From an uncultured Candidatus Saccharibacteria bacterium (GTDB taxonomy: Bacteria > Patescibacteriota > UBA1384 > XYA2-FULL-43-10 > 1-14-0-10-43-13): a stretch of DNA of 64,000 bases. Positions 9,598 to 27,123 of the stretch are shown here, piece by piece. The stretch lies in assembly GCA_964364265.1 (NCBI GenBank), contig CAYILA010000005.1, forward strand, positions 6,418-70,417, written 5' to 3'. Under the pieces are notes generated by a model. That model saw only the letters and a list, made by a program, of their open reading frames with translations. It did no database searches and was not told the origin of the DNA. Position 1 is the first letter of the stretch. Each line of letters opens with the position of its first letter. Made by a program: the position numbers and the translations under genes.

Positions 9598-10014
9598 ATG
9601 AAAAAGAAAATTGTTATAAAAGAAATACCAAAACGATATATCGATTGGGGATTTACTCTTGTTGCGTTTGTTCTGGCGATTTATTTGAACTGGTCACTCA
9701 CAGTCGCTTTCATTCTGGGTTTGGCGGTTTATGGTTTCTTAAATGATTATCGGGCTGATTTCTACAAAATGATTGCAATTATTGCCGGGTTTGTATCGGC
9801 CTTCGCACTAGCTTTTAAAATTCAAGTAATCTCCAAGGAGTTGGGTATTCTTTCATTTTCCTCGCTGATAATATTATTGATTATGATTGTAATTGAAAAC
9901 AGAAAAGAAAAAGATGAAATAAATAAAAAACAGAGTGAAAAATTTACAACAGGAACAAATTCGCTTAAAAAAAGTTATTATCAAAAAACCATCGTCGGTG
10001 AAAAAAAATGGTAA
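9598..10014 (+). CDS. small integral membrane protein
   Basis: 138 aa with three hydrophobic segments and a basic C-terminus. Confidence 0.3.
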   Translation: MKKKIVIKEIPKRYIDWGFTLVAFVLAIYLNWSLTVAFILGLAVYGFLNDYRADFYKMIAIIAGFVSAFALAFKIQVISKELGILSFSSLIILLIMIVIENRKEKDEINKKQSEKFTTGTNSLKKSYYQKTIVGEKKW

Positions 10015-10853: not shown

Positions 10854-12253
10854 AAAGCAAAAGAATCATCATAATCGGGGCTGGTATCGCCGGACAATTG
10901 TTGGCCAGTAACATTAAAGAGCACCATCAAAAGATTAAGATCATCGGTTTTGTCGATGATGAAGATTACAAAGAAAGCAAGAATATTGGTAAAATTGCCG
11001 ATTTGCCCAAAATCGTCCGGAAGCATCGAGTCGAGGAATTAGTTATCGCCATTCCCTCCGCGAGCGGAGAATTAATCAGGAAGATATTACTGACAGTTAA
11101 AAACAGTACCGTGCCGATAAAGATTGTTCCCAGAGACCAGAGCGTGATCAGCTATGACAGAGTCGAATATTTTGATGTTAAAGATCTCGCCCAAGAAGAT
11201 TTTCTAGGCCGTCCCTTTATCAAGGGCGACATTCAGAAATTAAAATCTCATTTCCAAAATAAAACTATTTTGATTACCGGCGGCGCCGGCTCAATCGGAT
11301 CGGAAATAGTGCGTCAGCTTCTAAGTCTGGATGTCAAAAAAGTAGTAGTCTACGATAATTCAGAATTTCTGACTTTTAATCTGGATCAGAGTTTGCGTGA
11401 AAAGGAGATAAAGAAAGCCCGATACCATTTGATAATTGGTAATATTCTAGATGATGAAAAACTGGACAAAGTGGTAAAGACAGAGAAACCAGATCTCGTT
11501 TTTCATGCCGCCGCCTACAAACACGTCTATCTGATGGAGGACAATCCCGAGGAAGCGATTATGAATAATCTTGTCGGCACAAAGAGAGTCGTCGACATTG
11601 CGGTCAAAAATGAGGTCAAACATTTCGTTTTCATTTCAACTGATAAGGTTGTTAACCCCACCAGCATTATGGGCGCTACTAAAAAACTGGGAGAGTATTA
11701 TATCAAATTCGTCGAGAGGAAATCCAAAACAAAGTTTACTATTGTCCGGTTTGGAAATGTCATAAATTCAAACGGTTCGGTCCTGCCTCTTTTTGACCGA
11801 CAGATTCGAGAGAACGGTTATGTCACGGTGACGCATAAAGATATCAGAAGATATTTTATGTCTATCAGAGAGGCATCGCACTTGGTAATTACCAGCGCTT
11901 TCTATGACAAAAAGGGGAATGTCTACGTTCTTGATATGGGCGATCTGATTAATATCTACGAAGTGGCGAAGTGCTTGATTAGGAGCAAATCGCTAATTCC
12001 CGAAAAGGATATTGAAATCAGGTTTATTGGCCTTAAAAAAGGCGAGAAAATGATTGAAGAATTATTCACCAAAAAGGAGAGAGAAAATCTAGTCAAGACC
12101 GATATCGAGGATATTTTATGTTTGAAAAACTTTGGCGATTGTCCAAATAATATAGAACGGATTATTGCCAAACTGGAAAAGTTGATCTTCGGGAACAAAT
12201 CAAAAATCAGGTCATCCTTAATAAAAATATTTCCTTCATTATTGATTAAATAA
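10847..12253 (+). CDS. CapD/PglF/WbpM-type polysaccharide biosynthesis protein (UDP-sugar 4,6-dehydratase)
   Basis: ILITGGAGSIGSEIVRQLL ... FHAAAYKHVYLMEDNPEEAIMNNLVGTKRVVDIA ... FISTDKVVNPTSIMGATKKLGE are hallmark blocks of the FlaA1/CapD family. Confidence 0.8.
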   Translation: MLKSKRIIIIGAGIAGQLLASNIKEHHQKIKIIGFVDDEDYKESKNIGKIADLPKIVRKHRVEELVIAIPSASGELIRKILLTVKNSTVPIKIVPRDQSVISYDRVEYFDVKDLAQEDFLGRPFIKGDIQKLKSHFQNKTILITGGAGSIGSEIVRQLLSLDVKKVVVYDNSEFLTFNLDQSLREKEIKKARYHLIIGNILDDEKLDKVVKTEKPDLVFHAAAYKHVYLMEDNPEEAIMNNLVGTKRVVDIAVKNEVKHFVFISTDKVVNPTSIMGATKKLGEYYIKFVERKSKTKFTIVRFGNVINSNGSVLPLFDRQIRENGYVTVTHKDIRRYFMSIREASHLVITSAFYDKKGNVYVLDMGDLINIYEVAKCLIRSKSLIPEKDIEIRFIGLKKGEKMIEELFTKKERENLVKTDIEDILCLKNFGDCPNNIERIIAKLEKLIFGNKSKIRSSLIKIFPSLLIK

Positions 12254-12269
12254 CAAGAAAGGCGGGATA

Positions 12270-13589
12270 ATGATAAAGAAATTCTTAATAAAACAACTAG
12301 AGATATTGCCGTTCTGGATCTCGTTGCTAGTCATTATTCCAATTTCTTATTATACATTTCATTCCGATTTTATCATTCTCTCAAAACTAGCTCAAAAAAT
12401 AGCCGGCGGCAACCTTAACTTTTATGAAGATTTATATATTGGAGCGGCTAATTATCATGTCCCGATGCTGCCGCCCCTTCTTTGCCTAGTCGATGGTTTG
12501 GCCTACTATTTGGCTGAACGATTGGGATTAATAAACTTTGACTTTACCCTTATTTATCACACTCCCTTTATCCATTTATTACTGCTTAAAAGTCGTTATA
12601 TTATAATTTTTATTCTTTCATATTTTCTGGTTAATAAAGTCGCGCTTGTTTATACTAATCAAGATAAAAAGCTGTCGAGAAGGATCGCTAATTTATGGAT
12701 CGCCAGCCCAATACTGATTTATCTACCATTTGTTCAGGGTAACAATGATATTTATCCGGCGATTTTCAGTTTGATTTTTCTATTATTTGTTTTTCGCAAT
12801 AATTTTCTTCTGGCTATGATATTTCTTGGTTTAACAGCTGCCCTGAAAGGATATGCTCTTTTCCTGATTGTTCCGGTTGCTCTAATTCTGGCCGAAAAAA
12901 ATCTTAAAAAAACTTTACTTTATTGTCTAACTTCTGGACTAGCGTATTTTCTGCCAACTCTATTTTACCTTAAAGATGTTGTCTATTTTACTAGTGGAAA
13001 TAGTGAAAAATTTATGATGCTTAGCACCTCGATTCCTTCTTCTTTGGTATCATATTCAATATTTGCGATTGGTTATTTTCTTATTTTACTTTTTCTTTAT
13101 TATAATGATGAGAATATTGAAAATATAATTGATAACAAACACAAAACACTGTTGGTTTATTGTTTTCTTGTAATGTCACTTTTTTTTGTGACCGCTTTTT
13201 ATCCTCAATGGTTTCTTTGGATATTGCCCTTTTTTATTTTCTTAATTTATAAGAACAAAAAATTATACTCCATCTATATTCTGATTTGTTCAGCTTACCT
13301 TTCATTAACATACATAGGATATCCCGGTAATCTTGATATTTACCTTTGGAGAAAAATATTTCCATCAGGGCCAAAAGGCTATTATTTCCCCGTAGGAGCG
13401 GATGAAATTAAACAATTGTTGATGTTCAACGCCGGTCTTTTTATCTCCCTTTTGATCGCATTTATTTATTTTTTGTTAAAAGACAACAGAAAAGAAAAAA
13501 CAGATGATAAGTTTTCTGTGTATTTAAGCTATTTGCCAACGGCTATTCTTCTTTTAGCTATATATGCAGTCGCTTTGCTTTCCAAATAG
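12270..13589 (+). CDS. polytopic membrane protein (putative GT-C-fold glycosyltransferase)
   Basis: 439 aa, ~11-13 hydrophobic helices, no soluble domain. Glycan-locus context. Confidence 0.4.
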   Translation: MIKKFLIKQLEILPFWISLLVIIPISYYTFHSDFIILSKLAQKIAGGNLNFYEDLYIGAANYHVPMLPPLLCLVDGLAYYLAERLGLINFDFTLIYHTPFIHLLLLKSRYIIIFILSYFLVNKVALVYTNQDKKLSRRIANLWIASPILIYLPFVQGNNDIYPAIFSLIFLLFVFRNNFLLAMIFLGLTAALKGYALFLIVPVALILAEKNLKKTLLYCLTSGLAYFLPTLFYLKDVVYFTSGNSEKFMMLSTSIPSSLVSYSIFAIGYFLILLFLYYNDENIENIIDNKHKTLLVYCFLVMSLFFVTAFYPQWFLWILPFFIFLIYKNKKLYSIYILICSAYLSLTYIGYPGNLDIYLWRKIFPSGPKGYYFPVGADEIKQLLMFNAGLFISLLIAFIYFLLKDNRKEKTDDKFSVYLSYLPTAILLLAIYAVALLSK

Positions 13590-13670: not shown

Positions 13671-14972
13671 ATGGTAGCTAATATGCGAATATATTATTTA
13701 ATCGAAAGAATAATGTTTGTACAGGTGAAAAAAATAATCAAGTATGTATTTAGCAGGGAGATCAGAGTGCCAGTTCTGATTATTTTCATTGGTACAACAA
13801 TAAGAATTATTCTACTGCCTTTGGCGGCACATGGCGATACTTGGAGCGCTCTCCGCGGTGAGTATTACTGGATTAATTTTGGGATCTTTCGATTAAATCA
13901 ATTTCCAGAAGTTTTACAAGCGGTCTATTTGAGGCTAATTGATGCACCAATCCTACAATCAGCTCTCCCTTCTCTTTTCGATACCTTTTTCCCAATTCAG
14001 GGACTAGGAGGAGACGTACAAACGAAATTAGTTGCTAATCCGATGGCGATGAGGGTATTGTTTTTCTACAAGTTGCCTTATCTTTTATTCGATATGGGTT
14101 GTGTGTTTGTTTTATTCAAAATATTTACCCAAAAAAGAAACCGAATTATTGCGGCTTTATTGTGGGCATTAAATCCACTTGTTTTGCATTCTGTTTATAT
14201 GTGGGGACGCTATGAAATATTTTCGATACTATTTGTTTTGGTTGCGTTTTATTATGCTAAAGAAAACAAGGCGTTTTGGTCCGTACTATTGTTTGGATTG
14301 GCGGTGGCATTTAGGATGCCATTTATCTTAGTGTTGCCTTTACTGATAATTTATTTTAGTGACAATTGGAAAGATGGATTAAAGTATACAGTGCTGGGTT
14401 TACTACCACTTTTCATGGTTAACCAGTTAATGTCGTTTTTAGGACCGGATACCTCTGTATATTATAAGTCAGTGGGATTTTTTAATTTTTTTGCCTCTAC
14501 AGGACTTGTTGGTGATTTCGCCCCGGTGGGAATTAATTACCTAGTCTACCCGGTTATTATCTGTCTTTTTCTAAATGAAAAAAGAAAGGGAATTGGTTTT
14601 GTTAAATTAGTATATTTTGCTTTCACTATTTTCTTGACAACTTTCTCTTTTAGTTATTTCCATCCACAGTATGCAGCATGGTTGACTCCTTTTTTACTAA
14701 TCGCAGTAACTTTAAATCGAAAATTGATAATTCCATCAATTATATCTTTAATTTTACTCTATCTTTTAATTAATTACGGTCTGGGCGAGACGACCGGTCT
14801 CGGTCTTTTTTTGCCTTCAAGTGCGATAATTTCCCATTTGCCAAAATTTGAAGTATTGCCGTTTGACAACCAAATGAACACCACGGTAGTGTATAATCTT
14901 TTTATCATTGTCAATATGTATTTAATAGTAATGATGTATAAGGACAAAGACAGGAAAAACAGTGAAGTTTAA
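13671..14972 (+). CDS. polytopic membrane protein (putative GT-C-fold glycosyltransferase)
   Basis: 433 aa, many TM helices. Its architecture resembles the upstream gene. A candidate promoter (ttgacc-17nt-tatata-like) is upstream at ~13615-13650. Confidence 0.4.
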   Translation: MVANMRIYYLIERIMFVQVKKIIKYVFSREIRVPVLIIFIGTTIRIILLPLAAHGDTWSALRGEYYWINFGIFRLNQFPEVLQAVYLRLIDAPILQSALPSLFDTFFPIQGLGGDVQTKLVANPMAMRVLFFYKLPYLLFDMGCVFVLFKIFTQKRNRIIAALLWALNPLVLHSVYMWGRYEIFSILFVLVAFYYAKENKAFWSVLLFGLAVAFRMPFILVLPLLIIYFSDNWKDGLKYTVLGLLPLFMVNQLMSFLGPDTSVYYKSVGFFNFFASTGLVGDFAPVGINYLVYPVIICLFLNEKRKGIGFVKLVYFAFTIFLTTFSFSYFHPQYAAWLTPFLLIAVTLNRKLIIPSIISLILLYLLINYGLGETTGLGLFLPSSAIISHLPKFEVLPFDNQMNTTVVYNLFIIVNMYLIVMMYKDKDRKNSEV

Positions 14973-15684: not shown

Positions 15685-16575
15685 ATGCCGAAGAAAAAAG
15701 TTAAGAGTAGCAAAATTAAAGTTGGAATATTGGGTACCGGCAATATTGGGACAGATCTTCTAGTCAAACTCCAGCGATCAAGAATTTTGGAGTGCGGTAT
15801 GTTCTCCGGACAAAACCCGGATTCTTCCGGTATTAAAAAAGCACGGTCAATGGGAGTTAAAACCTCCCTTGATTCAATCCAGGCCTTTGTAAATAAGCCA
15901 GATTGTTGTGAAATAGTGATTGACGCAACCTCGGCTCGAGCTCATTTTATTCACGCGCCTATCTTAAAAAAACTAAAGAAGTTTACTATTGATCTGACTC
16001 CTTCGCAAATCGGCAAGGCCTGCATTCCGGTCCTGAATATGAAGGAATGTTTAGAAGAGGATAATGTTAATCTAATTACATGCGGCGGTCAATGTGCGGT
16101 GCCGATTGCTTGCGCTATCACCCGAGTTCATCCGGAAATCGAATATATTGAAGTGGTGGCTTCTATCGCTTCTCTCTCTGCCGGTCGAGGAACCAGAGCC
16201 AATATTGATGAATTTACACAAGCCAGTAAGGACGCGATAAAAATATTTTCTGGTGTTTCGAGGGCCAAAGCGATTATCATATTAAATCCGGCCATCCCAC
16301 CGATTTTAATGCATAATACTGTTTATGCTTTAGTTAAAGAGCCAAAACTAAAGCAAATTAAGAAAGAGATTGATAAGATTACGAATTTGATTAAGGAATA
16401 TGTTCCCGGTTATACAATTACTTTAGGTCCGATTATGGAAAGCGGCCGATTGACAGTCATGATCGAGGTTACTGGCAAAGGCGATTTTTTGCCAAAATAC
16501 TCCGGAAATTTAGATATTGTGACCAGCGCCGCGATCAAGGTTGCCGAGGAGTATGCCAAAGCAAAGTTGATGTAA
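15685..16575 (+). CDS. acetaldehyde dehydrogenase (acetylating), DmpF/MhpF family
   Basis: KVGILGTGNIGTDLLVKL N-terminus and the CGGQCAVPIACAI catalytic-Cys region match DmpF-type enzymes; 296 aa. Confidence 0.8.
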   Translation: MPKKKVKSSKIKVGILGTGNIGTDLLVKLQRSRILECGMFSGQNPDSSGIKKARSMGVKTSLDSIQAFVNKPDCCEIVIDATSARAHFIHAPILKKLKKFTIDLTPSQIGKACIPVLNMKECLEEDNVNLITCGGQCAVPIACAITRVHPEIEYIEVVASIASLSAGRGTRANIDEFTQASKDAIKIFSGVSRAKAIIILNPAIPPILMHNTVYALVKEPKLKQIKKEIDKITNLIKEYVPGYTITLGPIMESGRLTVMIEVTGKGDFLPKYSGNLDIVTSAAIKVAEEYAKAKLM

Positions 16576-16673
16576 TATTGAAAAATATCCGCTAATTAAT
16601 CTTGCACCTGCCTTCGCCGGGATGACGCAGAAAAGGACAGAGATAGGGAGCGGCGGACGTAATAAAAACCATT

Positions 16674-17705
16674 ATGAAAACTAAACAAAATCAGAAATTA
16701 TTGTTCTTTGACTCCACTCTTCGTGACGGATCTCATGCTATTGCTCATCAATTAAGCCAGCAAAATATTCGTGACTACTGTAAAGTGATCGATCAAGCCG
16801 GTCTGGAGGTAGTGATAGTCGGTCACGGCAATGGACTAGGCGCTTCTTCGCTTCAGGTCGGACTGTCTGCTTTGACCGATCGCGTAATGTTGAAAACGGC
16901 TCGTCGCGAGCTTAAGCGAACCAAGTTGGGAGTATATTTAATTCCCGGTTTCGGGACAATAAAAGATGATCTTGACCCAGTTCTGAAGATTGGCGTGGAT
17001 TTAGTTTGTGTCGGTTGCCACTGTACCGAGGCCGATACAACCTATCAGCATATTGGTTATGTTCGAGCGGCCGGCAGGGAGGCCTACGGGGTCCTAATGA
17101 TGTATCATATGGTGACTAAGGAGGTAGTGCTAAAGGAAGCGCTAAAAATGCAGGAGTATGGAGCGCAAGGGGTTATCTTAATGGATTCAGCCGGCGCTTC
17201 TACTCCGCAAATGGTCAAAGAGACAGTTCAATTGCTGGTTGATAAGCTTAATGTGAGGGTAGGTTTTCATGCTCATAATAATCTAGCGCTAGCAGTTTCG
17301 AATTCAGTTCTTGCTTTAGAAGCCGGCGCAACTATAATTGATGGTACCGCTCGGGGTTTTGGCGCCGGCGCCGGCAATTGTCCGCAGGAGGTCTTGGTCG
17401 GCTTACTTACAAAAATTGGAATTAAAACCGGTCTTGACCTATATAAATTAATGGATGCCAGTGATCTCATTGCCACTATCCAACTTAAACCGCAAGAGAT
17501 ATCTTCAGAAAGCTTATCGAGCGGTTTGTCCGGAGTATTTTCGGCGTTTGGACCCCATGTTAAGCGAGCGGCGGAGAAATTTAAAGTCGATCCGCGAGAT
17601 ATTTTCGAAGAGCTTGGCCGTCGCAAAATGGTAGCCGGTCAAGAAGATTTTATAGTGGACATCGCCGTTAAACTGGCTAAACAACAGGGAAAACATCAAT
17701 CATGA
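16674..17705 (+). CDS. 4-hydroxy-2-oxovalerate aldolase-like (DmpG/MhpE, HMGL-like class II aldolase)
   Basis: FFDSTLRDGSHAIAHQLS and VIVGHGNGLGASS match the DmpG TLRDGxHA and HGxGL motifs. It is adjacent to its usual partner, the DmpF-like gene. Confidence 0.8.
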   Translation: MKTKQNQKLLFFDSTLRDGSHAIAHQLSQQNIRDYCKVIDQAGLEVVIVGHGNGLGASSLQVGLSALTDRVMLKTARRELKRTKLGVYLIPGFGTIKDDLDPVLKIGVDLVCVGCHCTEADTTYQHIGYVRAAGREAYGVLMMYHMVTKEVVLKEALKMQEYGAQGVILMDSAGASTPQMVKETVQLLVDKLNVRVGFHAHNNLALAVSNSVLALEAGATIIDGTARGFGAGAGNCPQEVLVGLLTKIGIKTGLDLYKLMDASDLIATIQLKPQEISSESLSSGLSGVFSAFGPHVKRAAEKFKVDPRDIFEELGRRKMVAGQEDFIVDIAVKLAKQQGKHQS

Positions 17706-19498
17706 ATATAGCGGATTTTATTTTTAAGTTTTTGACCGATAAAGGAGTTGACACTGTCTTTATGATTTCCGGTGGTCAGGCGATGTTTTTGAATGATGCG
17801 GTCTGTCGAAACAAAAAACTAAAGCAGGTAATCTGTAATCATCATGAGCAGGCTGCCGGTATGGCGGCCGATGCTTACGGCCGGATTACAGGAAAAGTTG
17901 CTGTGGCTTTAGTAACCGCCGGTCCCGGTTCGATTAATATTACCAATGGTTTGGTTGGCGGTTGGACAGATTCAGCCCCCATGATTGTCATCTCCGGACA
18001 ATCTAACTTATCGTGTGTTCAGTATCAAGAGAAAAACCCGATTAGGCAGTATGGTATTCAGGGAATAAATATTAGACCTTATGTCGAAAAAGCGACAAAA
18101 TTTTTTGCGACCGTCGATGATCCGAAAAAAATATTATATTATTTACAGAAGGCCTATCACCTCGCTTTGTCAGGTCGACCGGGTCCGGTTTGGCTTGATG
18201 TTCCGCTTGATATTCAAAAGATGGAGGTACAAAAGGGCCGACTCAAAGAATATATCATCCAAAATGACGAGATAAAGTCTGACCAACTTAAAAAAGAGGT
18301 AAGAGAAACCTTAAAACTTCTAAAATCGTCAAAGAGACCGATTTTATTGGTGGGACAGGGGGTTCGGTTGGCGGGAGCGGTGCCAGAGTTTGCAAAATGT
18401 GTCAAAAACCTAAATATTCCGGTTCTAACCTCGCGACTTGGAATCGATTTGATTAACAGCGATAATCCGCTCTATGTCGGCCGACCGGGAAATTATGGCG
18501 AACGCTCGGCCAATTTGGCAGTTCAAAATGCCGATTTAATCATTAGTGTCGGTTGCCGGTTAGCTTCAGCTTTAGTCGGTCATAATCCGAAAAGTTTTGG
18601 CAAACATGCTAAAAAGGTCGTTGTGGACGTTGACCAAGAAGAGCTCAACAAGCCGGGAGTGGAAATCGATTATAAAATTCGGTGCGACGCTAAACGATTT
18701 TTCGCCGAACTATTGAATCAGAGCGCGAAAGTATCAGGAAAAAACAACTCTAAGTGGATTTCAAAATGTAACGACTGGAAAAATCGTTATCCGGTAGTTC
18801 AAGCTGAATATAAAAACGAGAAGCCGGTTAACTCTTATTATTTTAGTGAAAAGCTTTCAAAACTGGCTGATAAAGACGATACGATAATCGTTGACACCGG
18901 CACCTGTTTTCATGTTGTTTGCCAGGTATGGAAGATTAAAAAGGGGCAGCGTTTCTTGACTACCGGCGGTTTATCGTCAATGGGCTGGTGGGTCGCGGGG
19001 ACGGGCGCTTGTTTGGCCAATAACAAAAAAAGGACGATTGTTGTGACTGGAGACGGTAGTTTACAAATGAATATACAGGAATTCGCGACCATAAAACATC
19101 ATAAACTTCCAATCAAAATTTTTATTTTTAATAATAACGGCTACCTTCTAATCCGGCATACCCAAAAAAACTTTTTAGATGGTCGATTATTTGCCGAGGG
19201 ACCAAAATCAGGTGTTTGGTGTCCCGATTCATTGAAGATTGCTAAAGCATACGGCATTAAAGGGGTTAGAATCAACTCGGTTAATGAAGTTGAGAGGAAA
19301 ATCAAAGAAGTGCTTGAGTATAATGGTCCGGTAATTTGTGATGTCATGACTCCGGAGTGGCAATTGATTATTCCTCGGGTTTCTTCAGATAAGTTGGCCG
19401 ACGGAACACTCGTCTCCAAACCGTATGAGGACATGTTTCCGTACTTGGATCGCAAGATTCTTAAAAAGGAGATGGTTGCTGAAATAGAAAAAGAGTAG
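17702..19498 (+). CDS. thiamine-diphosphate-dependent enzyme, acetolactate-synthase large-subunit-like (three-domain)
   Basis: N-terminal block HHEQAAGMAADAYGRITGKVAVALVTAGPGSINITNGLVGGWTDSAPMIVISGQ and C-terminal ThDP-binding block VVTGDGSLQMNIQEFATIKHHKLPIKIFIFNNNGY (GDG...NN motif). Confidence 0.8.
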   Translation: MNIADFIFKFLTDKGVDTVFMISGGQAMFLNDAVCRNKKLKQVICNHHEQAAGMAADAYGRITGKVAVALVTAGPGSINITNGLVGGWTDSAPMIVISGQSNLSCVQYQEKNPIRQYGIQGINIRPYVEKATKFFATVDDPKKILYYLQKAYHLALSGRPGPVWLDVPLDIQKMEVQKGRLKEYIIQNDEIKSDQLKKEVRETLKLLKSSKRPILLVGQGVRLAGAVPEFAKCVKNLNIPVLTSRLGIDLINSDNPLYVGRPGNYGERSANLAVQNADLIISVGCRLASALVGHNPKSFGKHAKKVVVDVDQEELNKPGVEIDYKIRCDAKRFFAELLNQSAKVSGKNNSKWISKCNDWKNRYPVVQAEYKNEKPVNSYYFSEKLSKLADKDDTIIVDTGTCFHVVCQVWKIKKGQRFLTTGGLSSMGWWVAGTGACLANNKKRTIVVTGDGSLQMNIQEFATIKHHKLPIKIFIFNNNGYLLIRHTQKNFLDGRLFAEGPKSGVWCPDSLKIAKAYGIKGVRINSVNEVERKIKEVLEYNGPVICDVMTPEWQLIIPRVSSDKLADGTLVSKPYEDMFPYLDRKILKKEMVAEIEKE

Positions 19499-19516
19499 GT
19501 TGTTAATCTCTAAAAT

Positions 19517-21043
19517 ATGCAAAGGAATACAATGTCGCAGGTATTAAAAAATATTTCCGCAAAGAAATTACTCAAGTTGGCTCTTAAACATCAGGAAGGT
19601 CGTATCTCTCAAACCGGAGCTTTAGTAGTGGAAACCGGAGTTTATACCGGCAGGTCGCCGAATGATCGGTTTATTGTTAAAAATCATCAAAGCCAGAAAG
19701 AAATCAACTGGGGCAAAGTAAATCAGCCAATTGCAAATTATGATTTTCAACGATTACATAGGAAGATTTTATCTTATTTGAAAAAACTTGAGCAAATTTA
19801 TCAGACCGATGGCTGGGTCTGCGCCGATCCTTCTGACCGAATATCGGTTCGGGTGATCTCGGAGTTTGCTTATCAAGCGCTATTTGCCCGTCATATTCTA
19901 AGGAACGGTCGAACAGAGGAGCTTTTGAACAGAAAGCCCGATCTAACGATTTTAGTTGCCCCGAATATCAAGGCCAATCCAAAGGCGAACGGGACAAACT
20001 CGGAGGCCTTTGTCATCATTAATCTGGAAAAGAAGTTAGTCATAATCGGCGGAACCAAATATGCCGGCGAGATTAAAAAATCAATTTTTTCATATCTCAA
20101 TTATGTTTTACCGCAAAAAAATGTCTTTCCAATGCACTGTTCGGCAAATATTGGCAAAGATGGCAGATCGGCTTTATTTTTCGGTCTGTCAGGCACTGGC
20201 AAAACCACTCTATCATCTGATTTGAATCGAAATTTAATTGGCGATGATGAGCATGGTTGGTCTAAGAAGGGTATTTATAATTTTGAGGGTGGTTGTTACG
20301 CAAAATGCATCAATTTGAGCAAGGAAAAAGAACCGCAGATTTTTAATGCAATCCGTGACGGCGCGGTGGTCGAAAATGTGGTTATGGACACCAAGGGGGA
20401 ACTTGATTTTGACGATGGCAGTTTAGCCGAGAATACTCGTGTTGCCTATCCATTAAACTATATTAGTAACTATCAACGCTCTGGCGCAGGAGGTCATCCT
20501 ACAAATATCATCTTCTTAACTGCTGACGCTACCGGGGTTCTTCCAGCCGTGGCTCGTCTAGATTACAACGAGGCAATCTATTATTTTCTTTCTGGTTATA
20601 CATCCAAGCTGGCCGGGACCGAGAGGGGGATTATCAAGCCGATACCAACTTTCTCTGCCTGTTTCGGCGCTCCTTTTATGCCGCTTAAACCCGAGGTTTA
20701 TGCCGAACTTCTAAAGAATAAATTGATTAAGCATCAGCCGAGTGTCTTTTTAGTCAATACCGGTTGGTTTGGCGGGCCTTACGGAATCGGCCAAAGAATC
20801 AGTATTCAAGAGACCAGAAGAATTGTATCAAAAATATTAGGCAACCGGCTCAATAATCTAGTCTTTGAGAAAGAGCCGATATTTGGCTTAAGTGTGCCAA
20901 CAAAAATTGAGAAAATAGATGAAAAGCTATTAAAACCGCGATTCGGTTGGAGTGATCCGCCGGCATATGACCGGCAGGCGAAGAAGCTCAAAAAATTATT
21001 TGTCGAAAACGCCAAACCATTTAATCAATTTGGTCAAAAATGA
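19517..21043 (+). CDS. pckA: phosphoenolpyruvate carboxykinase (ATP)
   Basis: TGRSPNDRFIV, FFGLSGTGKTTLS (kinase-1a) and GDDEHGW motifs of ATP-type PEPCK. The real start is probably MSQVLK at ~19532. Confidence 0.8.
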   Translation: MQRNTMSQVLKNISAKKLLKLALKHQEGRISQTGALVVETGVYTGRSPNDRFIVKNHQSQKEINWGKVNQPIANYDFQRLHRKILSYLKKLEQIYQTDGWVCADPSDRISVRVISEFAYQALFARHILRNGRTEELLNRKPDLTILVAPNIKANPKANGTNSEAFVIINLEKKLVIIGGTKYAGEIKKSIFSYLNYVLPQKNVFPMHCSANIGKDGRSALFFGLSGTGKTTLSSDLNRNLIGDDEHGWSKKGIYNFEGGCYAKCINLSKEKEPQIFNAIRDGAVVENVVMDTKGELDFDDGSLAENTRVAYPLNYISNYQRSGAGGHPTNIIFLTADATGVLPAVARLDYNEAIYYFLSGYTSKLAGTERGIIKPIPTFSACFGAPFMPLKPEVYAELLKNKLIKHQPSVFLVNTGWFGGPYGIGQRISIQETRRIVSKILGNRLNNLVFEKEPIFGLSVPTKIEKIDEKLLKPRFGWSDPPAYDRQAKKLKKLFVENAKPFNQFGQK

Positions 21044-22080
21044 ATAAGATTATTGAAGAAGATATCCACAATATTTTAAAAACATCCATCAAATGGGAAT
21101 TGTTTAGAGGTAGTACGGTTCTGATTTCAGGTGCTTCTGGTTGCCTCCCCGGTTATTTGGTTGAGACACTCTTAAAATTGGATGCTCAAGGATTCAATAT
21201 TAAGGTCTTGGCACTTGTTAGGAACAGAGGGAAAGCCAGGGCACGTTTTAAAAATTATTTAAATAATAAAAATTTATTTTTTATTAATCAAGATGTGACT
21301 TTGCCGGTAAAATATCATGGGAAGATTGACTACATTATTCATGCTGCGAGTCAGGCCAGCCCAAAATACTACCAGGTAGATCCAGTTGGTACACTAACAT
21401 CTAACACTATGGGAACTTATCAATTACTTCAGCTAGCGGTTGCCAAAAAAGTGAAAGTTTTTTTATTTTTCAGTAGCGGTGAAGTTTATGGTCGGGAAGA
21501 TCAAAAAAGAACCAAGGAAACTGACTACGGTTATTTAGATCCATTAGATGTTCGTTCCTGCTATGCCGAGAGCAAACGGGCTGGCGAGACTATGTGTATC
21601 AGTTTTTTGGCCCAGTATAAAGTTCCGGTTAAGATTATTCGTCCCTTTCACACTTTTGGCCCAGGTATCGGGCTAAATGATGGCCGAGTTTTTGCTGATT
21701 TTATCGCAAATATTATTCGAAATGAAAACATTGTTATGAAAAGTGATGGTTTGTCGGAACGCTCATTTTGCTATTTGGCAGATGCTACAGTTGCTTTTTT
21801 CCTGGTATTGCTTGAGGGTAAAATAGGAGAAGCATATAATGTGGGTAGGGAAAAACCGATTTCAATTATTGAATTAGCCAAATTGGTAGTCGGATTATTT
21901 CCCGAGAAGGGGCTTAAGGTAATAAGTAGAAAAAGAGTAGAGTCTGATCGATATATCGAGAGTCGTTTTTTGCATATTGCGCCAGACATTTCTAAAATTA
22001 AAATGCTAGGTTGGCAGCCAAAATATTCGATCTCTGAAGCATTTAAAAGAACAATATTAAGTTTTGGGGAACAAAAATGA
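21040..22080 (+). CDS. NAD-dependent epimerase/dehydratase (UDP-glucuronate decarboxylase / dTDP-glucose 4,6-dehydratase-like SDR)
   Basis: VLISGASGCLPGYLVETLL Rossmann motif and YAESKRAGE catalytic YxxxK. Confidence 0.7.
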   Translation: MNKIIEEDIHNILKTSIKWELFRGSTVLISGASGCLPGYLVETLLKLDAQGFNIKVLALVRNRGKARARFKNYLNNKNLFFINQDVTLPVKYHGKIDYIIHAASQASPKYYQVDPVGTLTSNTMGTYQLLQLAVAKKVKVFLFFSSGEVYGREDQKRTKETDYGYLDPLDVRSCYAESKRAGETMCISFLAQYKVPVKIIRPFHTFGPGIGLNDGRVFADFIANIIRNENIVMKSDGLSERSFCYLADATVAFFLVLLEGKIGEAYNVGREKPISIIELAKLVVGLFPEKGLKVISRKRVESDRYIESRFLHIAPDISKIKMLGWQPKYSISEAFKRTILSFGEQK

Positions 22081-23021
22081 CAAAACGAAAAACGATCTCT
22101 GTCCTAACGCCTTGCTATAATGAGGCGGAAAATGTTGAGAACTTGTATTTGGCGGTCAAAAAAATCTTTCAAGATATCGGCAGGTATGATTATGAGCATA
22201 TTTTTATTGATAATTGTTCAACTGACCGAACAGTCCCAATACTCAAGACACTGGCTTCAAAAGATAAAAATCTAAAAATCATCGTTAATATTCGGGATTT
22301 TGGTCAAGTGAAATCACCGGTTTATGGTTTAATGCAAACCTCGGGCGATGCAGCTATTTATTTGGTATCAGATTTTCAGGATCCGTTAGAATTAATTAAC
22401 CAATTTGTAAAGAAATGGGAAGAGGGTTTTGATATTGTCATCGGCATAAAGAAAAAAAGCGCAGAAAACCCAATATTGTTTCTCTTTCGCCAATTTTACT
22501 ATAATCTTCTTAAAAAATTATCAGAAACGGATCATATTAAGAATTTCACCGGTTTTGGTCTTTATGACCGAAAATTTATTAATATTCTCCGCCGCCTTGA
22601 TGATCCTGTTCCATATTTTCGTGGTTTAGTTGCTGAACTCGGTTTTAACCGTGTAGAGATTGAATACAACCAACCAAAGCGACGCGCTGGGAAAACCCAA
22701 AATAATTTTTATACTCTTTATGATATAGCCATGCTGGGTTTTGTCAATCACACCAAAATACCCTTAAGACTGGCCAGCTTTGTCGGCTTTACTATCGCCA
22801 CCGGCAATTTAATTGCGGCCTTTGTCTATCTCATATTTAAATTGATCTATTGGAATGAATTCGATGTTGGCATGGCACCATTGGTAATCGGAGTATTCTT
22901 CTTCTCGGCGGTCCAGTTATTTTTCATCGGCATAATCGGTGAATACATCGGCGCCATCTACACGCAGGTAAAGCGCCGGCCTCTAGTAATTGAAAAAGAG
23001 AGAATCAATTTTGATAAATAA
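22077..23021 (+). CDS. GT2 polyprenyl-phosphate glycosyltransferase (GtrB/DPM1/ArnC-like) with C-terminal TM helices
   Basis: ISVLTPCYNEAENV ... IFIDNCSTDRT at the N-terminus. Two C-terminal TM helices as in GtrB. The last ~47 aa are identical to the paralog at 23931-24893. Confidence 0.75.
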   Translation: MTKRKTISVLTPCYNEAENVENLYLAVKKIFQDIGRYDYEHIFIDNCSTDRTVPILKTLASKDKNLKIIVNIRDFGQVKSPVYGLMQTSGDAAIYLVSDFQDPLELINQFVKKWEEGFDIVIGIKKKSAENPILFLFRQFYYNLLKKLSETDHIKNFTGFGLYDRKFINILRRLDDPVPYFRGLVAELGFNRVEIEYNQPKRRAGKTQNNFYTLYDIAMLGFVNHTKIPLRLASFVGFTIATGNLIAAFVYLIFKLIYWNEFDVGMAPLVIGVFFFSAVQLFFIGIIGEYIGAIYTQVKRRPLVIEKERINFDK

Positions 23022-23031
23022 TCGATTGAAA
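22881..23031 (+). repeat. ~150-bp direct repeat (copy 1) spanning the 3' end of the GtrB-like GT2 and the start of the downstream gene
   Basis: ~95% identical to 24753-24904. The last ~80 bp (gaatacatcggcgccatctacacgcaggtaaagcgccggcctctagtaattgaaaaagagagaatcaattttgataaata) are identical in both copies. Confidence 0.85.
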
Positions 23032-23958
23032 ATCGCAATTTTAGGTGCGACCGGGCATATTGCTAAAGGGTTGGTTGAGAATTTCATAACAAATACCAAT
23101 CATCAACTTTTCCTCTATTCTCGCTCGATTGATTCATTCAAGAACTATCCGGTAAAACTTCCGCAAAAGCGGGCAACGACCCTGATGAATGATTCGTTCA
23201 AGCAATATCGGTACGACGCAATTGTTAATTGTGTAGGAGTCGGCGATCCACAAAAGGTTAAAGAATCGGGTGGACGAATTTTCTTGATAACCGAGGAATT
23301 TGATCAATTGGTTATGAATTATTTATACGAATATCCGAAGTGCAAATATATCAACTTCAGCAGCGGTGCTGTTTATGGCAAGGAACTAAATGGTATTGTT
23401 TCCCTGGAATCAGAGTTTAAATTGGCGGTAAATAATATTAGCGACAAAGATTATTATGCCATCGCCAAATTAAATTCCGAAGCCAAGCATCGAAGTTTTG
23501 GAGAGTTAAATATCATTGATATTAGAGTGTTTTCATATTTTAGCCGCTATATTAATCTTAAGACAAAGTACTTGATAACTGAAATACTGGATAGTATATT
23601 GCATGGAAAAACTTTTGTTACCGATTCAAACGATATCGTTCGAGATTACATCGGGCCGAAAGATCTTTTTAACCTGGTGGATCATTGTCTTAAATATCCG
23701 AATCATTTAAATCTAGCTATTGATGTTTATAGCAAAGAGCCGGTCAAAAAAACGCAGATTCTTAAATTTTTTACTTCAAATTTTCAGTTGAAATGGCGAG
23801 TCGAATCCGGCCTAAAAATCTTAAACGCTACCGGAATGAAATCTCAATATTATTCGACTAACAAAACAGCAGAGATTGTCGGATATAAGCCTGCTTCGAC
23901 ATCGTTGGAAATACTGGGCGGCGAAGCAAAATGTATTTTAAAAAAAAGGAAACAATGA
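22990..23958 (+). CDS. NAD(P)-binding Rossmann-fold protein (SDR-like epimerase/reductase); real start probably TTG near 23026
   Basis: LKIAILGATGHIAKGLVENF glycine-rich motif. The ORF-track start (TTG at 22990) lies in the repeated segment shared with 24862 and overlaps the upstream gene. Confidence 0.45.
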   Translation: MKKRESILINNRLKIAILGATGHIAKGLVENFITNTNHQLFLYSRSIDSFKNYPVKLPQKRATTLMNDSFKQYRYDAIVNCVGVGDPQKVKESGGRIFLITEEFDQLVMNYLYEYPKCKYINFSSGAVYGKELNGIVSLESEFKLAVNNISDKDYYAIAKLNSEAKHRSFGELNIIDIRVFSYFSRYINLKTKYLITEILDSILHGKTFVTDSNDIVRDYIGPKDLFNLVDHCLKYPNHLNLAIDVYSKEPVKKTQILKFFTSNFQLKWRVESGLKILNATGMKSQYYSTNKTAEIVGYKPASTSLEILGGEAKCILKKRKQ

Positions 23959-24893
23959 AAACCTTAATCTCAATAGTTACCCCCTGTTATAATGAAGAGG
24001 AAAATATTCAGGAACTGCGAAAACAGGTTTTGGAAGTGGTCTCAAAAATTCAGGGTTATGAATTCGAGCATATTTTTATTGATAACGCTTCTACCGACCG
24101 AACCCAGCAGATACTCCGACAGATGGCCAAAGAGGATAACAGTGTCAAAGTCATCTTAAATCTGAAAAATTTTGGCCACATTCGCTCGCCTTACTACGCT
24201 CTTCTACAAGCTAATGGATCAGCGGTTATCCAAATCGTTTCCGATCTTCAGGATCCTCCGAAAATGATCAAGGACTTTGTACGAGAATGGGAAGCCGGTC
24301 ATCAGATAGTTATTGGGGTTAAGAAAAAGAGTGAAGAAAACCGATTATTGTTTGCGATTCGATGTTTATATTATCGTTTGCTTAAAAAGATGTCGGAGAC
24401 GGAACAGATAGAGAACTTTACCGGTTTTGGTTTGTATGATCGTTCATTTTTGGATATTATTCGTCAAATCACTGAACCCTACCCTTATCTTCGGGGGTTA
24501 GTTGCAGAATACGGTGTCAACCGGTTAGAAATTGAGTATGTCCAACCGCGCCGAAAAAAGGGCAAAACAAATAATAATTTTTATACTCTTTATGATATGG
24601 CGATGACCGGCTTTGTTAACCACTCCAAGGTTCCCTTGAGATTGGCAAGTTTTATCGGTTTTAGTGTTGCAATTTTAAGCCTGATGGTGGCTATAATTTA
24701 TTTTATTATTAAATTAATTCATTGGGATGAATTTAATGCCGGTATTGCTCCTCTGGTAATCGGAGTATTCTTCTTCTCGGCGGTTCAATTATTCTTTATC
24801 GGGATAATCGGGGAATACATCGGCGCCATCTACACGCAGGTAAAGCGCCGGCCTCTAGTAATTGAAAAAGAGAGAATCAATTTTGATAAATAA
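23931..24893 (+). CDS. GT2 polyprenyl-phosphate glycosyltransferase (GtrB/DPM1-like), paralog of 22077-23021
   Basis: LISIVTPCYNEEENIQEL ... IFIDNASTDRT. Roughly 60% identical to the upstream paralog, with the C-terminal 47 aa 100% identical (inference). The real start is probably MKTLIS at ~23955. Confidence 0.75.
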   Translation: MYFKKKETMKTLISIVTPCYNEEENIQELRKQVLEVVSKIQGYEFEHIFIDNASTDRTQQILRQMAKEDNSVKVILNLKNFGHIRSPYYALLQANGSAVIQIVSDLQDPPKMIKDFVREWEAGHQIVIGVKKKSEENRLLFAIRCLYYRLLKKMSETEQIENFTGFGLYDRSFLDIIRQITEPYPYLRGLVAEYGVNRLEIEYVQPRRKKGKTNNNFYTLYDMAMTGFVNHSKVPLRLASFIGFSVAILSLMVAIIYFIIKLIHWDEFNAGIAPLVIGVFFFSAVQLFFIGIIGEYIGAIYTQVKRRPLVIEKERINFDK

Positions 24894-24904
24894 GCGATTG
24901 AAAA
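24753..24904 (+). repeat. ~150-bp direct repeat (copy 2)
   Basis: See copy 1 at 22881-23031. Confidence 0.85.
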
Positions 24905-27123
24905 AATACCGGGTTGTTTTACTCTATCTTTTTCTTTCACTCATTTTTTTGGCTCCGATATTAACCGGAAATGGTCTACCGTTTCGTTATGACTGGGTCT
25001 GGCCGATCTTTAATACGGGGCAGTTTTGGGATGGTCTAACGACAGGCAATTCACTTGGTGTTTTTTCAGCTCTATCAAAAAACGGACCGGCGGTTCTAGG
25101 AGTATTGGGAATGACTTATCTTCCGCCCTTATATTTGTTTAAAATATTTATCTTTTTGATCCATTTTGTAGCCGGATATGGATTTTACCGGTTTATCAGA
25201 GAGAGGGTACAGTCAGAAACGGTAGCAATCGTTTCCGGTTTGGCCTACGCTTTGACGCCCTATATATTCATAAGAACTATCATCGGTTTTGTCTGGTCGA
25301 TGCTGGCTTATGCGCTACTGCCGGTTTTTTTATTAAAATATTTCGAAGCTAAGAAAAAAATCTTTGACTATCTGATTATTGGTTTTCTTTTCTCTTTGAT
25401 ATTCGGCCAAATCCAAGCCGGTCTTTTAACCTTTTTAATCATTTCGATTTATTCGGTTTTGTCTCTATTTACTACGGATTCTAAAAAAGCGGTCAAAAAT
25501 TATATTTTTACCCTTATCTCCCTCTTTGTTTTCGCCTTGCCATGGCTATCGGTTATTTTTTTTAAGAAACAAACTTTAGCCACTGTTTCCGGCGGAGCTG
25601 CCACAACCCTGGATTTTATTTCCTCCCTCCCTCACAGTTACCGCAACTTCATAATGCTTTCAGATCATCATATAACCTCGGATTTTTTCAATTCTTTGGG
25701 GCGGGATAAACTATTTCTAGCCGGTTGGCTGGTCGTCTGGTTCGTGTCTGCCTGCGTCGTATTTAATAAAAAAAATAGAACATTGGCGCTGACATTTTTG
25801 GTTTCCTCATTATTGGTTTTGCCTTTCATTAAAGGTCCGCTTGGAGTTTTCGGACATTTTTATATCTGGTTTTATGATCGAGTACCTCAAATTGCTGTTT
25901 TTAGGGAAACCTATCATTTTGAATTTTTATTCGCCATCTCTATTTCTGTTTTGTTTGCTCTGGGACTCGATTGGCTTTGGCAAAAGATTGATAATCAAAA
26001 AAAAATAACCCTGCCTCGCCGACAGGCGGGCAAGATACAAGGTTCAGACGGACTTATTAGCTTACTGCTTACCGGCTTAAAAGCTATTTCAGCCGGCAGT
26101 ATTATCTTCATCATCTCGCCTTATCTGACATTTGATTATGCCGGTTATCTAAAACTTCAAAAAATTCCCGCTGAATATAATCAGCTAAATATTTTTCTAA
26201 AAGAAAATAAAAATTACTGTCAGAAGATTTACTACCCTCCCGGACTGGGTTTTCTTTATTTTAAAAACGATAATTTAAAAGGCGCCTCAAATGCCGACAC
26301 CTTTGCTTCCTCAGTCGGTATTCCGCATCTGACCGATGGCGCTTCCGTTTTGAGTGTGCCAAGCGAAGAGATGTTTTATCGAAACGAGATCGTATCCCAG
26401 TTTTATGAAAGGTCTGATGACGGCCGGTTTGTAGATTTGCTGAATGAGGGTGGCGTTGACTGCCTAATATTGCGCTTGAATATGGAAACGAGATATGATC
26501 AGGCCTCAAACCTTTGGCGAGAGAAAGATCCAGTCATCCTAAAGAAATGGAACAATATCGACCTCCTTTCTTTAGCCAAAACGAAAAAGGGGATGAAACT
26601 GGAGAAGCAATTCGGAGAAAATATTTTCATTTATAAGATCGACTCAAACAAAGTTCAGGATCCGGGACTCGGGACTCGGGACTCGGGACTGAATAATCTG
26701 GAACCGGTGGCCTGGAACCAGAGACCTAGGACGTATCTGCCGCTAACCGATTGGGCGAATAATTTTGCTTACTATAGGGATGGTTGGAGCCGAGGCCGAT
26801 ATGACTTTTGGCGCAAACACCTCTTCACACAACTGCGACAGGATTTTATCTATACCGATAAGCCTGACTCAACTTTGACTGGAAAAATTTCGGAAAACGG
26901 ATCCTATGAGCTCTGGGTGCGGTATCTAGACGGCGGAGGAGCAGGCAGATTTAAGATTATTGTTAATAATATGGAATTTGTGGTACAAAAGGAGGCAGGC
27001 GCGGAGAGATTCGCTTGGAAGATATTAAATGAAGTTAAAATTAATGGAAACGCTTCCTTTGAAATTACCAATCTTAGCGGCGAGAATGCCATATCGGATC
27101 TTGTTTTGATAAAAAACGATTGA
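24862..27123 (+). CDS. large polytopic membrane protein with C-terminal soluble domain (putative GtrC-like/GT-C glycosyltransferase partner of the GtrB-like GT2)
   Basis: 753 aa. The N-terminal ~420 aa are multi-TM and the C-terminal ~330 aa are soluble. It contains a 4x heptanucleotide tract (26663-26690). The ORF-track TTG start is inside the duplicated segment; the real start is probably ~24898. Confidence 0.4.
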   Translation: MKKRESILINKRLKKYRVVLLYLFLSLIFLAPILTGNGLPFRYDWVWPIFNTGQFWDGLTTGNSLGVFSALSKNGPAVLGVLGMTYLPPLYLFKIFIFLIHFVAGYGFYRFIRERVQSETVAIVSGLAYALTPYIFIRTIIGFVWSMLAYALLPVFLLKYFEAKKKIFDYLIIGFLFSLIFGQIQAGLLTFLIISIYSVLSLFTTDSKKAVKNYIFTLISLFVFALPWLSVIFFKKQTLATVSGGAATTLDFISSLPHSYRNFIMLSDHHITSDFFNSLGRDKLFLAGWLVVWFVSACVVFNKKNRTLALTFLVSSLLVLPFIKGPLGVFGHFYIWFYDRVPQIAVFRETYHFEFLFAISISVLFALGLDWLWQKIDNQKKITLPRRQAGKIQGSDGLISLLLTGLKAISAGSIIFIISPYLTFDYAGYLKLQKIPAEYNQLNIFLKENKNYCQKIYYPPGLGFLYFKNDNLKGASNADTFASSVGIPHLTDGASVLSVPSEEMFYRNEIVSQFYERSDDGRFVDLLNEGGVDCLILRLNMETRYDQASNLWREKDPVILKKWNNIDLLSLAKTKKGMKLEKQFGENIFIYKIDSNKVQDPGLGTRDSGLNNLEPVAWNQRPRTYLPLTDWANNFAYYRDGWSRGRYDFWRKHLFTQLRQDFIYTDKPDSTLTGKISENGSYELWVRYLDGGGAGRFKIIVNNMEFVVQKEAGAERFAWKILNEVKINGNASFEITNLSGENAISDLVLIKND
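26663..26690 (+). repeat. heptanucleotide tandem repeat (cgggact)x4 inside the CDS at 24862-27123
   Basis: cgggactcgggactcgggactcgggact encodes GLGTRDSGL. Unit length is not a multiple of 3. Confidence 0.8.

Follow-up and report, generated by a model that had tools for sequence, protein, structure and literature searches.

Branched-chain sugars of the yersiniose type arise by addition of an acyl anion to a keto sugar. In Yersinia pseudotuberculosis, the thiamine diphosphate (ThDP)-dependent enzyme YerE and its partner YerF make yersiniose A: an acyl anion equivalent is added to the C4 ketone of CDP-4-keto-3,6-dideoxyglucose, and the product is then reduced (PMC9306805). The erwiniose cluster of Pectobacterium atrosepticum SCRI1043 encodes ErwE, a YerE-like ThDP enzyme, ErwF, an NAD(P)H reductase, ErwI, a pyruvate aldolase resembling BphI and DmpG, and ErwJ, an acetaldehyde dehydrogenase resembling BphJ and DmpF; these genes adjoin those for CDP-4-keto-3,6-dideoxyglucose and a glycosyltransferase (Steitz et al. 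2022, PMC9306805). In the published scheme, ErwJ converts acetyl-CoA to acetaldehyde, from which ErwI, with pyruvate, forms 4-hydroxy-2-oxopentanoate; after decarboxylation, ErwE attaches the remaining C4 unit to the keto sugar, and ErwF reduces the branch. In vitro, ErwE accepted 4-hydroxy-2-oxopentanoate with a ketone analogue and rejected pyruvate (PMC9306805). The same logic applies in M. marinum to caryophyllose and in M. gastri to gastriose. A YerE-like carboligase from Janthinobacterium sp. HH01, JanthE (structures 8rph, 8rpi, and 8rpj), produces tertiary alcohols and is reported to use 4-hydroxy-2-oxovalerate among other donors, including pyruvate (PMC12188165). We examined a 64,000-nucleotide stretch (“the window”) of contig CAYILA010000005.1 from an uncultured Candidatus Saccharibacteria bacterium, in which four consecutive genes at 15685-21043 encode a DmpF-like dehydrogenase, a DmpG-like aldolase, a YerE-like ThDP enzyme, and the phosphoenolpyruvate (PEP) carboxykinase PckA. 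We consider it likely that the first three genes (15685-19498) are the side-chain module of an erwiniose-type pathway for an acyl-branched sugar, set within a surface glycan locus of more than 40 kb.

The original prediction had named four co-oriented genes and their families, and this was confirmed: the open reading frames (ORFs) were recovered at the exact coordinates, and the DmpF-like, DmpG-like, and PckA proteins each passed an NCBIfam cut-off. The first gene (15685-16575, + strand) encodes an acetylating acetaldehyde dehydrogenase of the DmpF/BphJ/ErwJ type, which scored 370 bits against the equivalog model TIGR03215 (cut-off 282); its best matches in the PDB were 7z3s, 4jn6_B, and 1nvm_B, and the cysteine of the ITCGGQ motif is kept in the alignment to 7z3s. 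The second (16674-17705, + strand) encodes a class II pyruvate aldolase of the DmpG/BphI/ErwI type, with 375 bits against the equivalog model TIGR03217 (cut-off 286), a DmpG communication domain (PF07836, 92.5 bits), and best PDB matches to 8ih7, 1nvm_A, and 4jn6_A; in the alignment to 8ih7 it retains the LRDGsHA and HAHNNL motifs. While the identity of these residues comes from the alignments, their catalytic and metal-binding roles are presumed by us to be those of DmpFG. The pair thus shares equivalog models, PDB matches, communication domain, and catalytic motifs with DmpFG, BphIJ, and HsaFG of aromatic and steroid meta-cleavage. Those systems, however, are catabolic, whereas the window pair stands in a biosynthetic context with no hydratase or meta-cleavage gene nearby and, for that reason, would be expected to run in the reverse, condensing direction.

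The third gene (17702-19498, + strand) encodes a ThDP protein with the three domains TPP_enzyme_N, _M, and _C (PF02776, PF00205, and PF02775), all above cut-off. Its placement relative to acetolactate synthase (ALS), Xsc, and Oxc was judged by a ranking of PDB bit scores together with NCBIfam cut-offs, which stood in for a phylogeny. The best NCBIfam model was that for ALS, TIGR00118, whose cut-off of 538 bits the protein missed with a score of 376, and it fell far below the threshold of all specific ALS models. In a comparison with all PDB sequences, JanthE was the top match and hence the nearest solved structure (8rph, 434 bits, 37% identity), aligning over the full length including the C-terminal extension. 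Next were 5ahk at 237 bits, which we take to be PpYerE (a review attests no more than that both PpYerE and JanthE have solved structures), and the yeast and plant acetohydroxyacid synthases (AHAS) at about 227 bits, with Gcl (no more than 164 bits), pyruvate oxidase, and Oxc (no more than 113 bits) ranking lower. The cofactor motif GDG (G450-D451-G452) is invariant in the family alignment; JanthE, in contrast to the canonical form of the window protein, carries CDG at this position. These scores support the earlier proposal that the enzyme is YerE-like rather than an ALS, and suggest that the name “acetolactate synthase” given to it by routine annotation is wrong. YerE/YerF and PpYerE share with it the logic of ThDP-dependent addition and the three-domain fold family; YerE, unlike the window enzyme, has no DmpFG partners and uses pyruvate, yielding a C2 branch.

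We then compared the surroundings of this gene in other genomes. With aligned homologues of the ThDP enzyme as the query, and each species represented by a single genome, a scan returned 80 loci whose ThDP proteins are 60-76% identical. Neighborhood counts cover 82 related loci, in which neighbors were identified (i) by tblastn with the window proteins and (ii) for unbiased partner counts, by clustering all ORFs of the 82 loci, followed by Pfam annotation. The carriers include Elusimicrobiota, Firestonebacteria, Omnitrophota, many Patescibacteria, Clostridia/Lachnospiraceae, metagenome-assembled genomes of Gammaproteobacteria, Lentisphaerae, Melainabacteria, Fibrobacter, and others, among them the isolates Lachnotalea glycerini DSM 28816 and Clostridium gasigenes DSM 12272; over more than 10 phyla the ThDP family is 60-83% identical. 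The order and strand of DmpF-DmpG-ThDP were kept wherever upstream sequence exists. The DmpG gene lies immediately 5' of the ThDP gene in every locus with room for it (76/76), and a DmpF gene adjoins the two in 70 related loci.

ORF clustering placed RfbH, the CDP-6-deoxy-4-hexulose 3-dehydrase (E1), in 63 of the 82 loci, a 4,6-dehydratase-type short-chain dehydrogenase/reductase (SDR) in 52, a nucleotidyltransferase in 48, and a PgfS-like family 2 glycosyltransferase (GT2) in 38. Four further SDR families occurred 24, 19, 13, and 13 times (69 occurrences), and a member of one of the four stands directly 3' of the ThDP gene in 43 loci; two families of GtrA-domain ORFs (10 occurrences each) and an FkbM methyltransferase (8/82) were less frequent. 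Because the trio keeps the company of RfbF, RfbG, and RfbH, SDRs, GT2s, and GtrA across phyla, we assign it to a sugar pathway and not to catabolism; it was not met in central-metabolism contexts away from glycan genes. Given the domain architecture, the curated cut-offs, the nearest characterized relative, and this conserved linkage, the trio is most probably an acyl-branched sugar module of the ErwJ/ErwI/ErwE type. The suggestion in the original prediction that the four genes form a sugar-tailoring module, which the DmpFG-like pair would serve, therefore held for DmpF-DmpG-ThDP, linked as they are to CDP-3,6-dideoxyhexose genes, SDRs, and GT2s, but not for PckA, a homologue of which was found by tblastn in none of the 82 loci.

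Among relatives with extended context, L081 is the closest (ThDP protein 83% identical); it has the order RfbF-RfbG-RfbH-DmpF-DmpG-ThDP-SDR-FkbM-GT2 with no PckA. Its RfbF is a glucose-1-phosphate cytidylyltransferase (TIGR02623, 384 bits, cut-off 300), and the stop of its ThDP gene overlaps the start of the SDR gene. Immediately after this cassette, at 15466-17703 of L081, are AbiEii/AbiEi toxin-antitoxin-type genes, consistent with a mobile or variable region. The window GroEL, which points to a Berkelbacteria-like genome, has its best named matches, at 78-81% identity, in “Patescibacteria group” and “Candidatus Berkelbacteria”, while the nearest named relatives of the ThDP cassette are in Elusimicrobiota, Firestonebacteria, and Omnitrophota; this discordance between the distribution of the cassette and organismal relationships suggests horizontal spread. 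Six loci from Patescibacteria and Melainabacteria (L015, L016, L017, L018, L062, and L071) contain two to three YerE-like ThDP paralogues within about 12 kb of the cassette. The extra paralogues are 33-46% identical to the window enzyme (e.g., L016 at 10001-11764, 11786-13558, and 20046-21761), and L039 and L062 each have an extra PpYerE-like copy, about 40% identical to 5ahk. Such multiple paralogues may reflect several different branched sugars, or a stepwise building of the chain.

The source of the keto-sugar acceptor appears to lie at the left edge of the window. RfbH occupies positions 1-1062 (+ strand) and is cut by the window start; the partial protein nevertheless scored 576 bits against NF011936 (cut-off 423). 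A contig that overlaps the window and stems from the same population (L091; Hainich groundwater sample, 0.1 µm fraction) supplied the full-length protein (656 bits) and, directly 5' of it, RfbG, the CDP-glucose 4,6-dehydratase (TIGR02622, 394 bits, cut-off 278). RfbH has the cysteine arrangement C180-x57-C238-x-C240-x7-C248, kept in 51 of 55 full-length homologues from related loci, and a histidine, in FYPAHH, replaces the Schiff-base lysine. We take the motif C-x57-C-x-C-x7-C, as the ligand set of a [2Fe-2S] cluster, and the exchange of the pyridoxal phosphate-binding lysine for histidine to be the defining marks of E1. Since RfbF, RfbG, and RfbH accompany the cassette, the acceptor would match that of yersiniose and erwiniose, a CDP-4-keto-3,6-dideoxyhexose. 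The original prediction had turned for this step to the CapD 4,6-dehydratase gene at 10847-12253; we rejected this candidate, as the conserved partners are RfbF, RfbG, and RfbH, and the relevant route runs from CDP-glucose through RfbG to RfbH at the left window edge. Directly 3' of RfbH is an extended SDR gene (1040-1909, + strand; Pfam Epimerase, 104 bits), which matched no NCBIfam equivalog and is a candidate nucleotide-sugar reductase; just weak homologues of it (28-38% identity) adjoin RfbH, in L006, L016, and L040.

Starting from what was observed, namely the family assignments, the gene linkage, and the E1 hallmarks, we infer in which direction the DmpFG-like pair runs, the donor, the order of steps, the branch-reducing SDR, delivery by a lipid carrier, and what PckA contributes, as follows. 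The DmpF-like enzyme would reduce acetyl-CoA with NADH to acetaldehyde, and the DmpG-like aldolase, probably in complex with it through the communication domain, would condense acetaldehyde with pyruvate to 4-hydroxy-2-oxopentanoate. The ThDP enzyme would decarboxylate this keto acid and add the four-carbon acyl unit, as a 3-hydroxybutanoyl carbanion equivalent, to the C4 ketone of CDP-4-keto-3,6-dideoxy-D-glucose, the acceptor being supplied by glucose-1-phosphate cytidylyltransferase, CDP-glucose 4,6-dehydratase, and RfbH/E1, encoded at or just beyond the left window edge. One of two SDRs, encoded at 21040-22080 or 22990-23958, would reduce the branch carbonyl. A PgfS/ArnC-like GT2 would then move the completed sugar off CDP and onto polyprenyl phosphate, and after flipping a GT-C-type membrane protein would join it to a polymer or protein at the surface. 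PckA would at most feed precursors (PEP, pyruvate, hexose) derived from oxaloacetate. By gene content, the window and the erwiniose module share both the gene set and the logic of supplying the ThDP enzyme with a hydroxy-keto acid made by an aldolase. The original prediction had pictured pyruvate in that role, along an undescribed route, and had held that none of the four genes belongs to a canonical polysaccharide pathway. For the first three genes that view is outdated: the trio corresponds to the erwiniose side-chain module, and the route to the ErwJ/ErwI/ErwE scheme, in which the donor is 4-hydroxy-2-oxopentanoate made by DmpFG-type enzymes (described in 2022; PMC9306805).

The predicted later steps draw on the genes 3' of the cassette, where two SDR-GT2 pairs follow each other. 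The first extended SDR (21040-22080, + strand; Pfam Epimerase/GDP_Man_Dehyd) resembles UDP-xylose synthase-type enzymes by sequence, with UXS1 as its best PDB match (156 bits). Its homologues stand directly 3' of the ThDP gene in L081 (77% identity), L010, L029, L032, L037, and L079, and directly 3' of PckA in L083 and L085 (79-81% identity). The second SDR (22990-23958, + strand) scored 49 bits against Pfam Epimerase and had no PDB or NCBIfam match; homologues of it (38-45% identity) lie directly 3' of the ThDP gene in 11 related loci, and a copy 65% identical follows PckA in L084. Either SDR could be the branch reductase of the ErwF/YerF type. The paired GT2s, at 22077-23021 and 23931-24893 (both + strand), combine a Glycos_transf_2 domain with two C-terminal transmembrane (TM) helices, the topology of the polyprenyl-phosphate glycosyltransferases GtrB and ArnC. 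Both are best matched by the PgfS model (182 and 180 bits, respectively), below its cut-off of 500, and both reach 113-117 bits with the ArnC model, below its cut-off of 529. Homologues of the first (50-80% identity) occur in many related loci, and those of the second (50-81%) are near the cassette in many loci. While the window has both “SDR + PgfS-like GT2” modules in tandem (21040-24893), relatives hold one, of the first type in L083 and of the second in L084; the modules look exchangeable, and may lead to two epimeric or otherwise different final sugars.

Next in line is a gene for a polytopic membrane protein of 753 amino acids (24862-27123, + strand) with 11 predicted TM helices and no Pfam hit. 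A homologue 59% identical follows the GT2 in L083, and L081 has YfhO GT-C genes; we regard the window protein as a candidate GT-C-type transferase, which would pass the sugar from its lipid carrier to a surface acceptor. Membrane proteins with 8-12 TM helices are encoded at 5650-8049, 12270-13589, and 13671-14972 as well as at 24862-27123, and a small protein (9598-10014) has 3-4. These TM proteins, together with the GtrA and YfhO genes of relatives, fit a lipid-carrier delivery to an extracytoplasmic acceptor. Cells of Patescibacteria are without lipopolysaccharide (LPS), and delivery by a lipid carrier suits them. In this the window departs from the erwiniose system, whose host has an O-antigen and uses an O-antigen glycosyltransferase; the window, from a member of the candidate phyla radiation (CPR)/Patescibacteria, instead encodes the predicted PgfS/ArnC-like GT2s and GT-C-like membrane proteins. 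It differs further in that no E3 reductase was seen, in its two tandem SDR-GT2 modules, and in the position of PckA between the ThDP enzyme and the SDR.

PckA (19517-21043, + strand) is an ATP-dependent PEP carboxykinase that scored 667 bits against TIGR00224 (cut-off 590) and has intact GLSGTGKT, EGGCYAK, HCSAN, and FLSGYT motifs. Its close clade (68-100% identity) was recovered in four contexts, the window, L083, L084, and L085/L086, all with the order YerE-like ThDP-PckA-SDR. L083 has DmpF-DmpG-ThDP (81% identity)-PckA (72%)-SDR (79%)-GT2 (79%); L084 has a ThDP paralogue (45%)-PckA (68%)-SDR of the second type (65%)-GT2 (81%); and L085/L086 have a ThDP paralogue (45%)-PckA (70%)-SDR (81%). 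The next homologues (59-61% identity, from Roizmanbacteria and other CPR) are in housekeeping contexts, one with Obg, a sigma factor, and the mevalonate pathway, another with tRNA synthetases and an aminotransferase. Cassette genes stood beside PckA in none of the 84 loci whose PckA is 47-64% identical. A metagenome scan with PckA, which served as a negative control, yielded no new member of the close clade (best match 62-64%), and a literature search for PckA in glycan loci of Patescibacteria returned nothing relevant. PckA is thus outside the conserved cassette, and is probably a passive resident at the ThDP-SDR junction in one small CPR lineage; the simplest reading is that a housekeeping pckA settled at the junction and stayed while the upstream cassette was exchanged. 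The gnd gene beside the O-antigen cluster of Escherichia coli is likewise a conserved central-metabolism gene adjoining an exchanged glycan cassette, although gnd-type housekeeping genes are at the edge, whereas the window PckA is inside the operon between two pathway genes.

Several observations weigh against an erwiniose-type module accompanied by a passive PckA. Identity of the ThDP enzyme to JanthE is just 37% and to PpYerE 29%, and the 237 bits of the latter match barely exceed the AHAS scores. Moreover, as JanthE is promiscuous and takes pyruvate too, donor specificity is not readable from homology. In the window, RfbH and the DmpF gene are 14.6 kb apart, with other glycan genes between. 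A crude regular-expression search for an E3 reductase of the AscD/RfbI type, defined as an ORF with a plant-type 2Fe-2S motif and an RxYS motif, found none within the initial 30 kb of the window, nor in any of the 82 loci, and no such reductase is among the conserved neighbor families of those loci. With an E1 that keeps its Fe-S motif and no E3 found, 3-deoxygenation here lacks its classical partner, which may be encoded elsewhere. Finally, PckA is tightly operonic and always between a YerE-like ThDP enzyme and an SDR in the four contexts of its clade, two of which carry the different, 45% identical ThDP paralogue; this synteny is somewhat unexpected for a purely passive resident.

Other readings of the trio were weighed against these data. 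The ThDP enzyme might be a classical YerE that uses pyruvate to form a C2 acetyl branch, as in yersiniose, with the DmpFG-like pair either extending that branch by aldol chemistry afterwards or removing acetaldehyde. YerE does use pyruvate (PMC9306805), JanthE accepts it besides longer donors (PMC12188165), and L039 and L062 carry their extra PpYerE-like paralogue. Steitz et al., however, rejected this order for ErwE because pyruvate was not accepted (PMC9306805); furthermore, the strict adjacency of DmpF, DmpG, and ThDP genes in 76/76 loci fits a channelled donor supply, and the DmpG-type active-site motifs and communication domain indicate an aldolase of free keto acids, so that we find this reading very doubtful. 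To read all four genes as fermentative or central metabolism, with a catabolic DmpFG pair and an ALS, has in its favor that the pair passes equivalogs trained on catabolic enzymes, that no NCBIfam model scores the ThDP protein higher than that for ALS, and that PckA and the oxidoreductase described below are true central-metabolism enzymes. We find it scarcely credible, since the ThDP protein is under every ALS cut-off, neither an ALS small subunit nor meta-cleavage genes were found among the annotated neighbors or the families conserved in the 82 loci, and the reading is contradicted by neighborhood data showing that the trio travels with glycan genes across phyla. The corresponding alternative in the original prediction, that central-metabolism genes merely reside here, fits PckA alone better than it fits the trio. 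A phosphonate pathway (PEP mutase or a RhiG-like aldolase) was also considered and rejected, as PEP mutase is missing and the aldolase is accounted for by its linkage to CDP-dideoxyhexose genes.

A related question is whether PckA takes part in an erwiniose-type pathway in this lineage, turning oxaloacetate derived from amino acids into PEP. The PEP could then feed pyruvate for the aldolase and donor, acetyl-CoA by way of a 2-oxoacid:ferredoxin oxidoreductase (OFOR), and gluconeogenic hexose-phosphate for CDP-glucose, and a shared transcript would keep the supply of precursors in step with glycan synthesis in a CPR cell of reduced metabolism. Consistent with this are the 18-nt gap before PckA and the 4-nt overlap after it, a coupling that is as tight in L083 and L085, and the retention of ThDP-PckA-SDR in all four recoverable clade contexts, although two of them have a different ThDP paralogue and either SDR type. 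Also consistent is the presence within the same glycan locus of OFOR genes. We nonetheless consider such a role unlikely: PckA is missing from the 82 cassette loci of other lineages, even from L081; as an enzyme it is canonical and shows nothing that would suggest neofunctionalization; and its next CPR relatives are in housekeeping contexts. Streamlined CPR genomes often put unrelated genes in one transcription unit, and a swapped ThDP gene beside a conserved PckA-SDR is what cassette exchange next to a stable resident would produce. The OFOR in question (27128-29693, + strand) has three subunits and is embedded among glycan genes, with a polytopic membrane protein 5' and an opposite-strand GT2 3'. 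The best models for its alpha subunit are OFOR/VorB-like, below cut-off, beta matches TPP_enzyme_C, and gamma is fused to a 2x[4Fe-4S] ferredoxin domain; no OFOR homologue was found in the 80 cassette loci. A more far-reaching proposal, which we judge improbable, is that both PckA and OFOR have been recruited as dedicated helpers, PckA channelling PEP and pyruvate from oxaloacetate into the side chain, OFOR supplying acetyl-CoA for the DmpF-like enzyme, and the OFOR ferredoxin replacing E3 as electron donor to E1. If true, this would give anaerobes a route to 3,6-dideoxy sugars that is driven by ferredoxin and needs no E3, and would explain the lack of an E3 gene with the cassette in 82 loci from many phyla.

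Within the four genes, packing is close. The DmpG and ThDP genes overlap by 4 nt, and the 98-bp gap between the DmpF and DmpG genes (16576-16673) compares with about 5-190 bp, mostly 10-35 bp, in relatives. A promoter and terminator scan gave no informative intergenic signal within the four genes, and none that was convincing in 16576-16673; an Rfam scan of the window found no RNA families. The 5' flank holds GT2, family 1 glycosyltransferase (GT1), acetyltransferase, CapD, and SDR genes together with the polytopic membrane or GT-C-like proteins of 8-12 predicted TM helices, so that the earlier description of GT-C/TM genes upstream and SDR/GT2 genes downstream agrees with the TM predictions and Pfam matches.

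The glycan locus extends far beyond the four genes, spanning 1-42650 of the window. Besides further GT1 and GT2 genes, it encodes a Wzx-type flippase (34621-36039, - strand), two Wzy_C/O-antigen-ligase-like proteins (36141-37442 and 38937-40208), and a PMT_2 GT-C (37435-38940). The CapD/PseB-like dehydratase at 10847-12253 is accompanied by its own SDR (10008-10853), which, added to the Rfb route, suggests at least two nucleotide-sugar pathways in the locus. The protein of 333 amino acids encoded at 31795-32796 (- strand) bears a type I dockerin domain at its C terminus (PF00404, E = 2e-7). Genes for a membrane H+-pyrophosphatase (43864-45978, + strand) and the CTP synthase PyrG (53725-55449, - strand) lie at a distance of a few kilobases from the locus; although CDP-sugar synthesis uses CTP and releases pyrophosphate, their closeness is probably coincidental.

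The route that we propose is a known one; what is new here is the phylum and, probably, the manner of delivery. As the conserved cassette spans many phyla, acyl-branched sugars are probably far more common than the few cases described from LPS and lipooligosaccharide would suggest. For this uncultivated member of the Patescibacteria, an erwiniose-type module predicts a cell surface that carries a 3,6-dideoxyhexose with a four-carbon hydroxylated branch, similar to erwiniose, and such unusual surface sugars of CPR bacteria would be candidates for recognition by hosts or phages.

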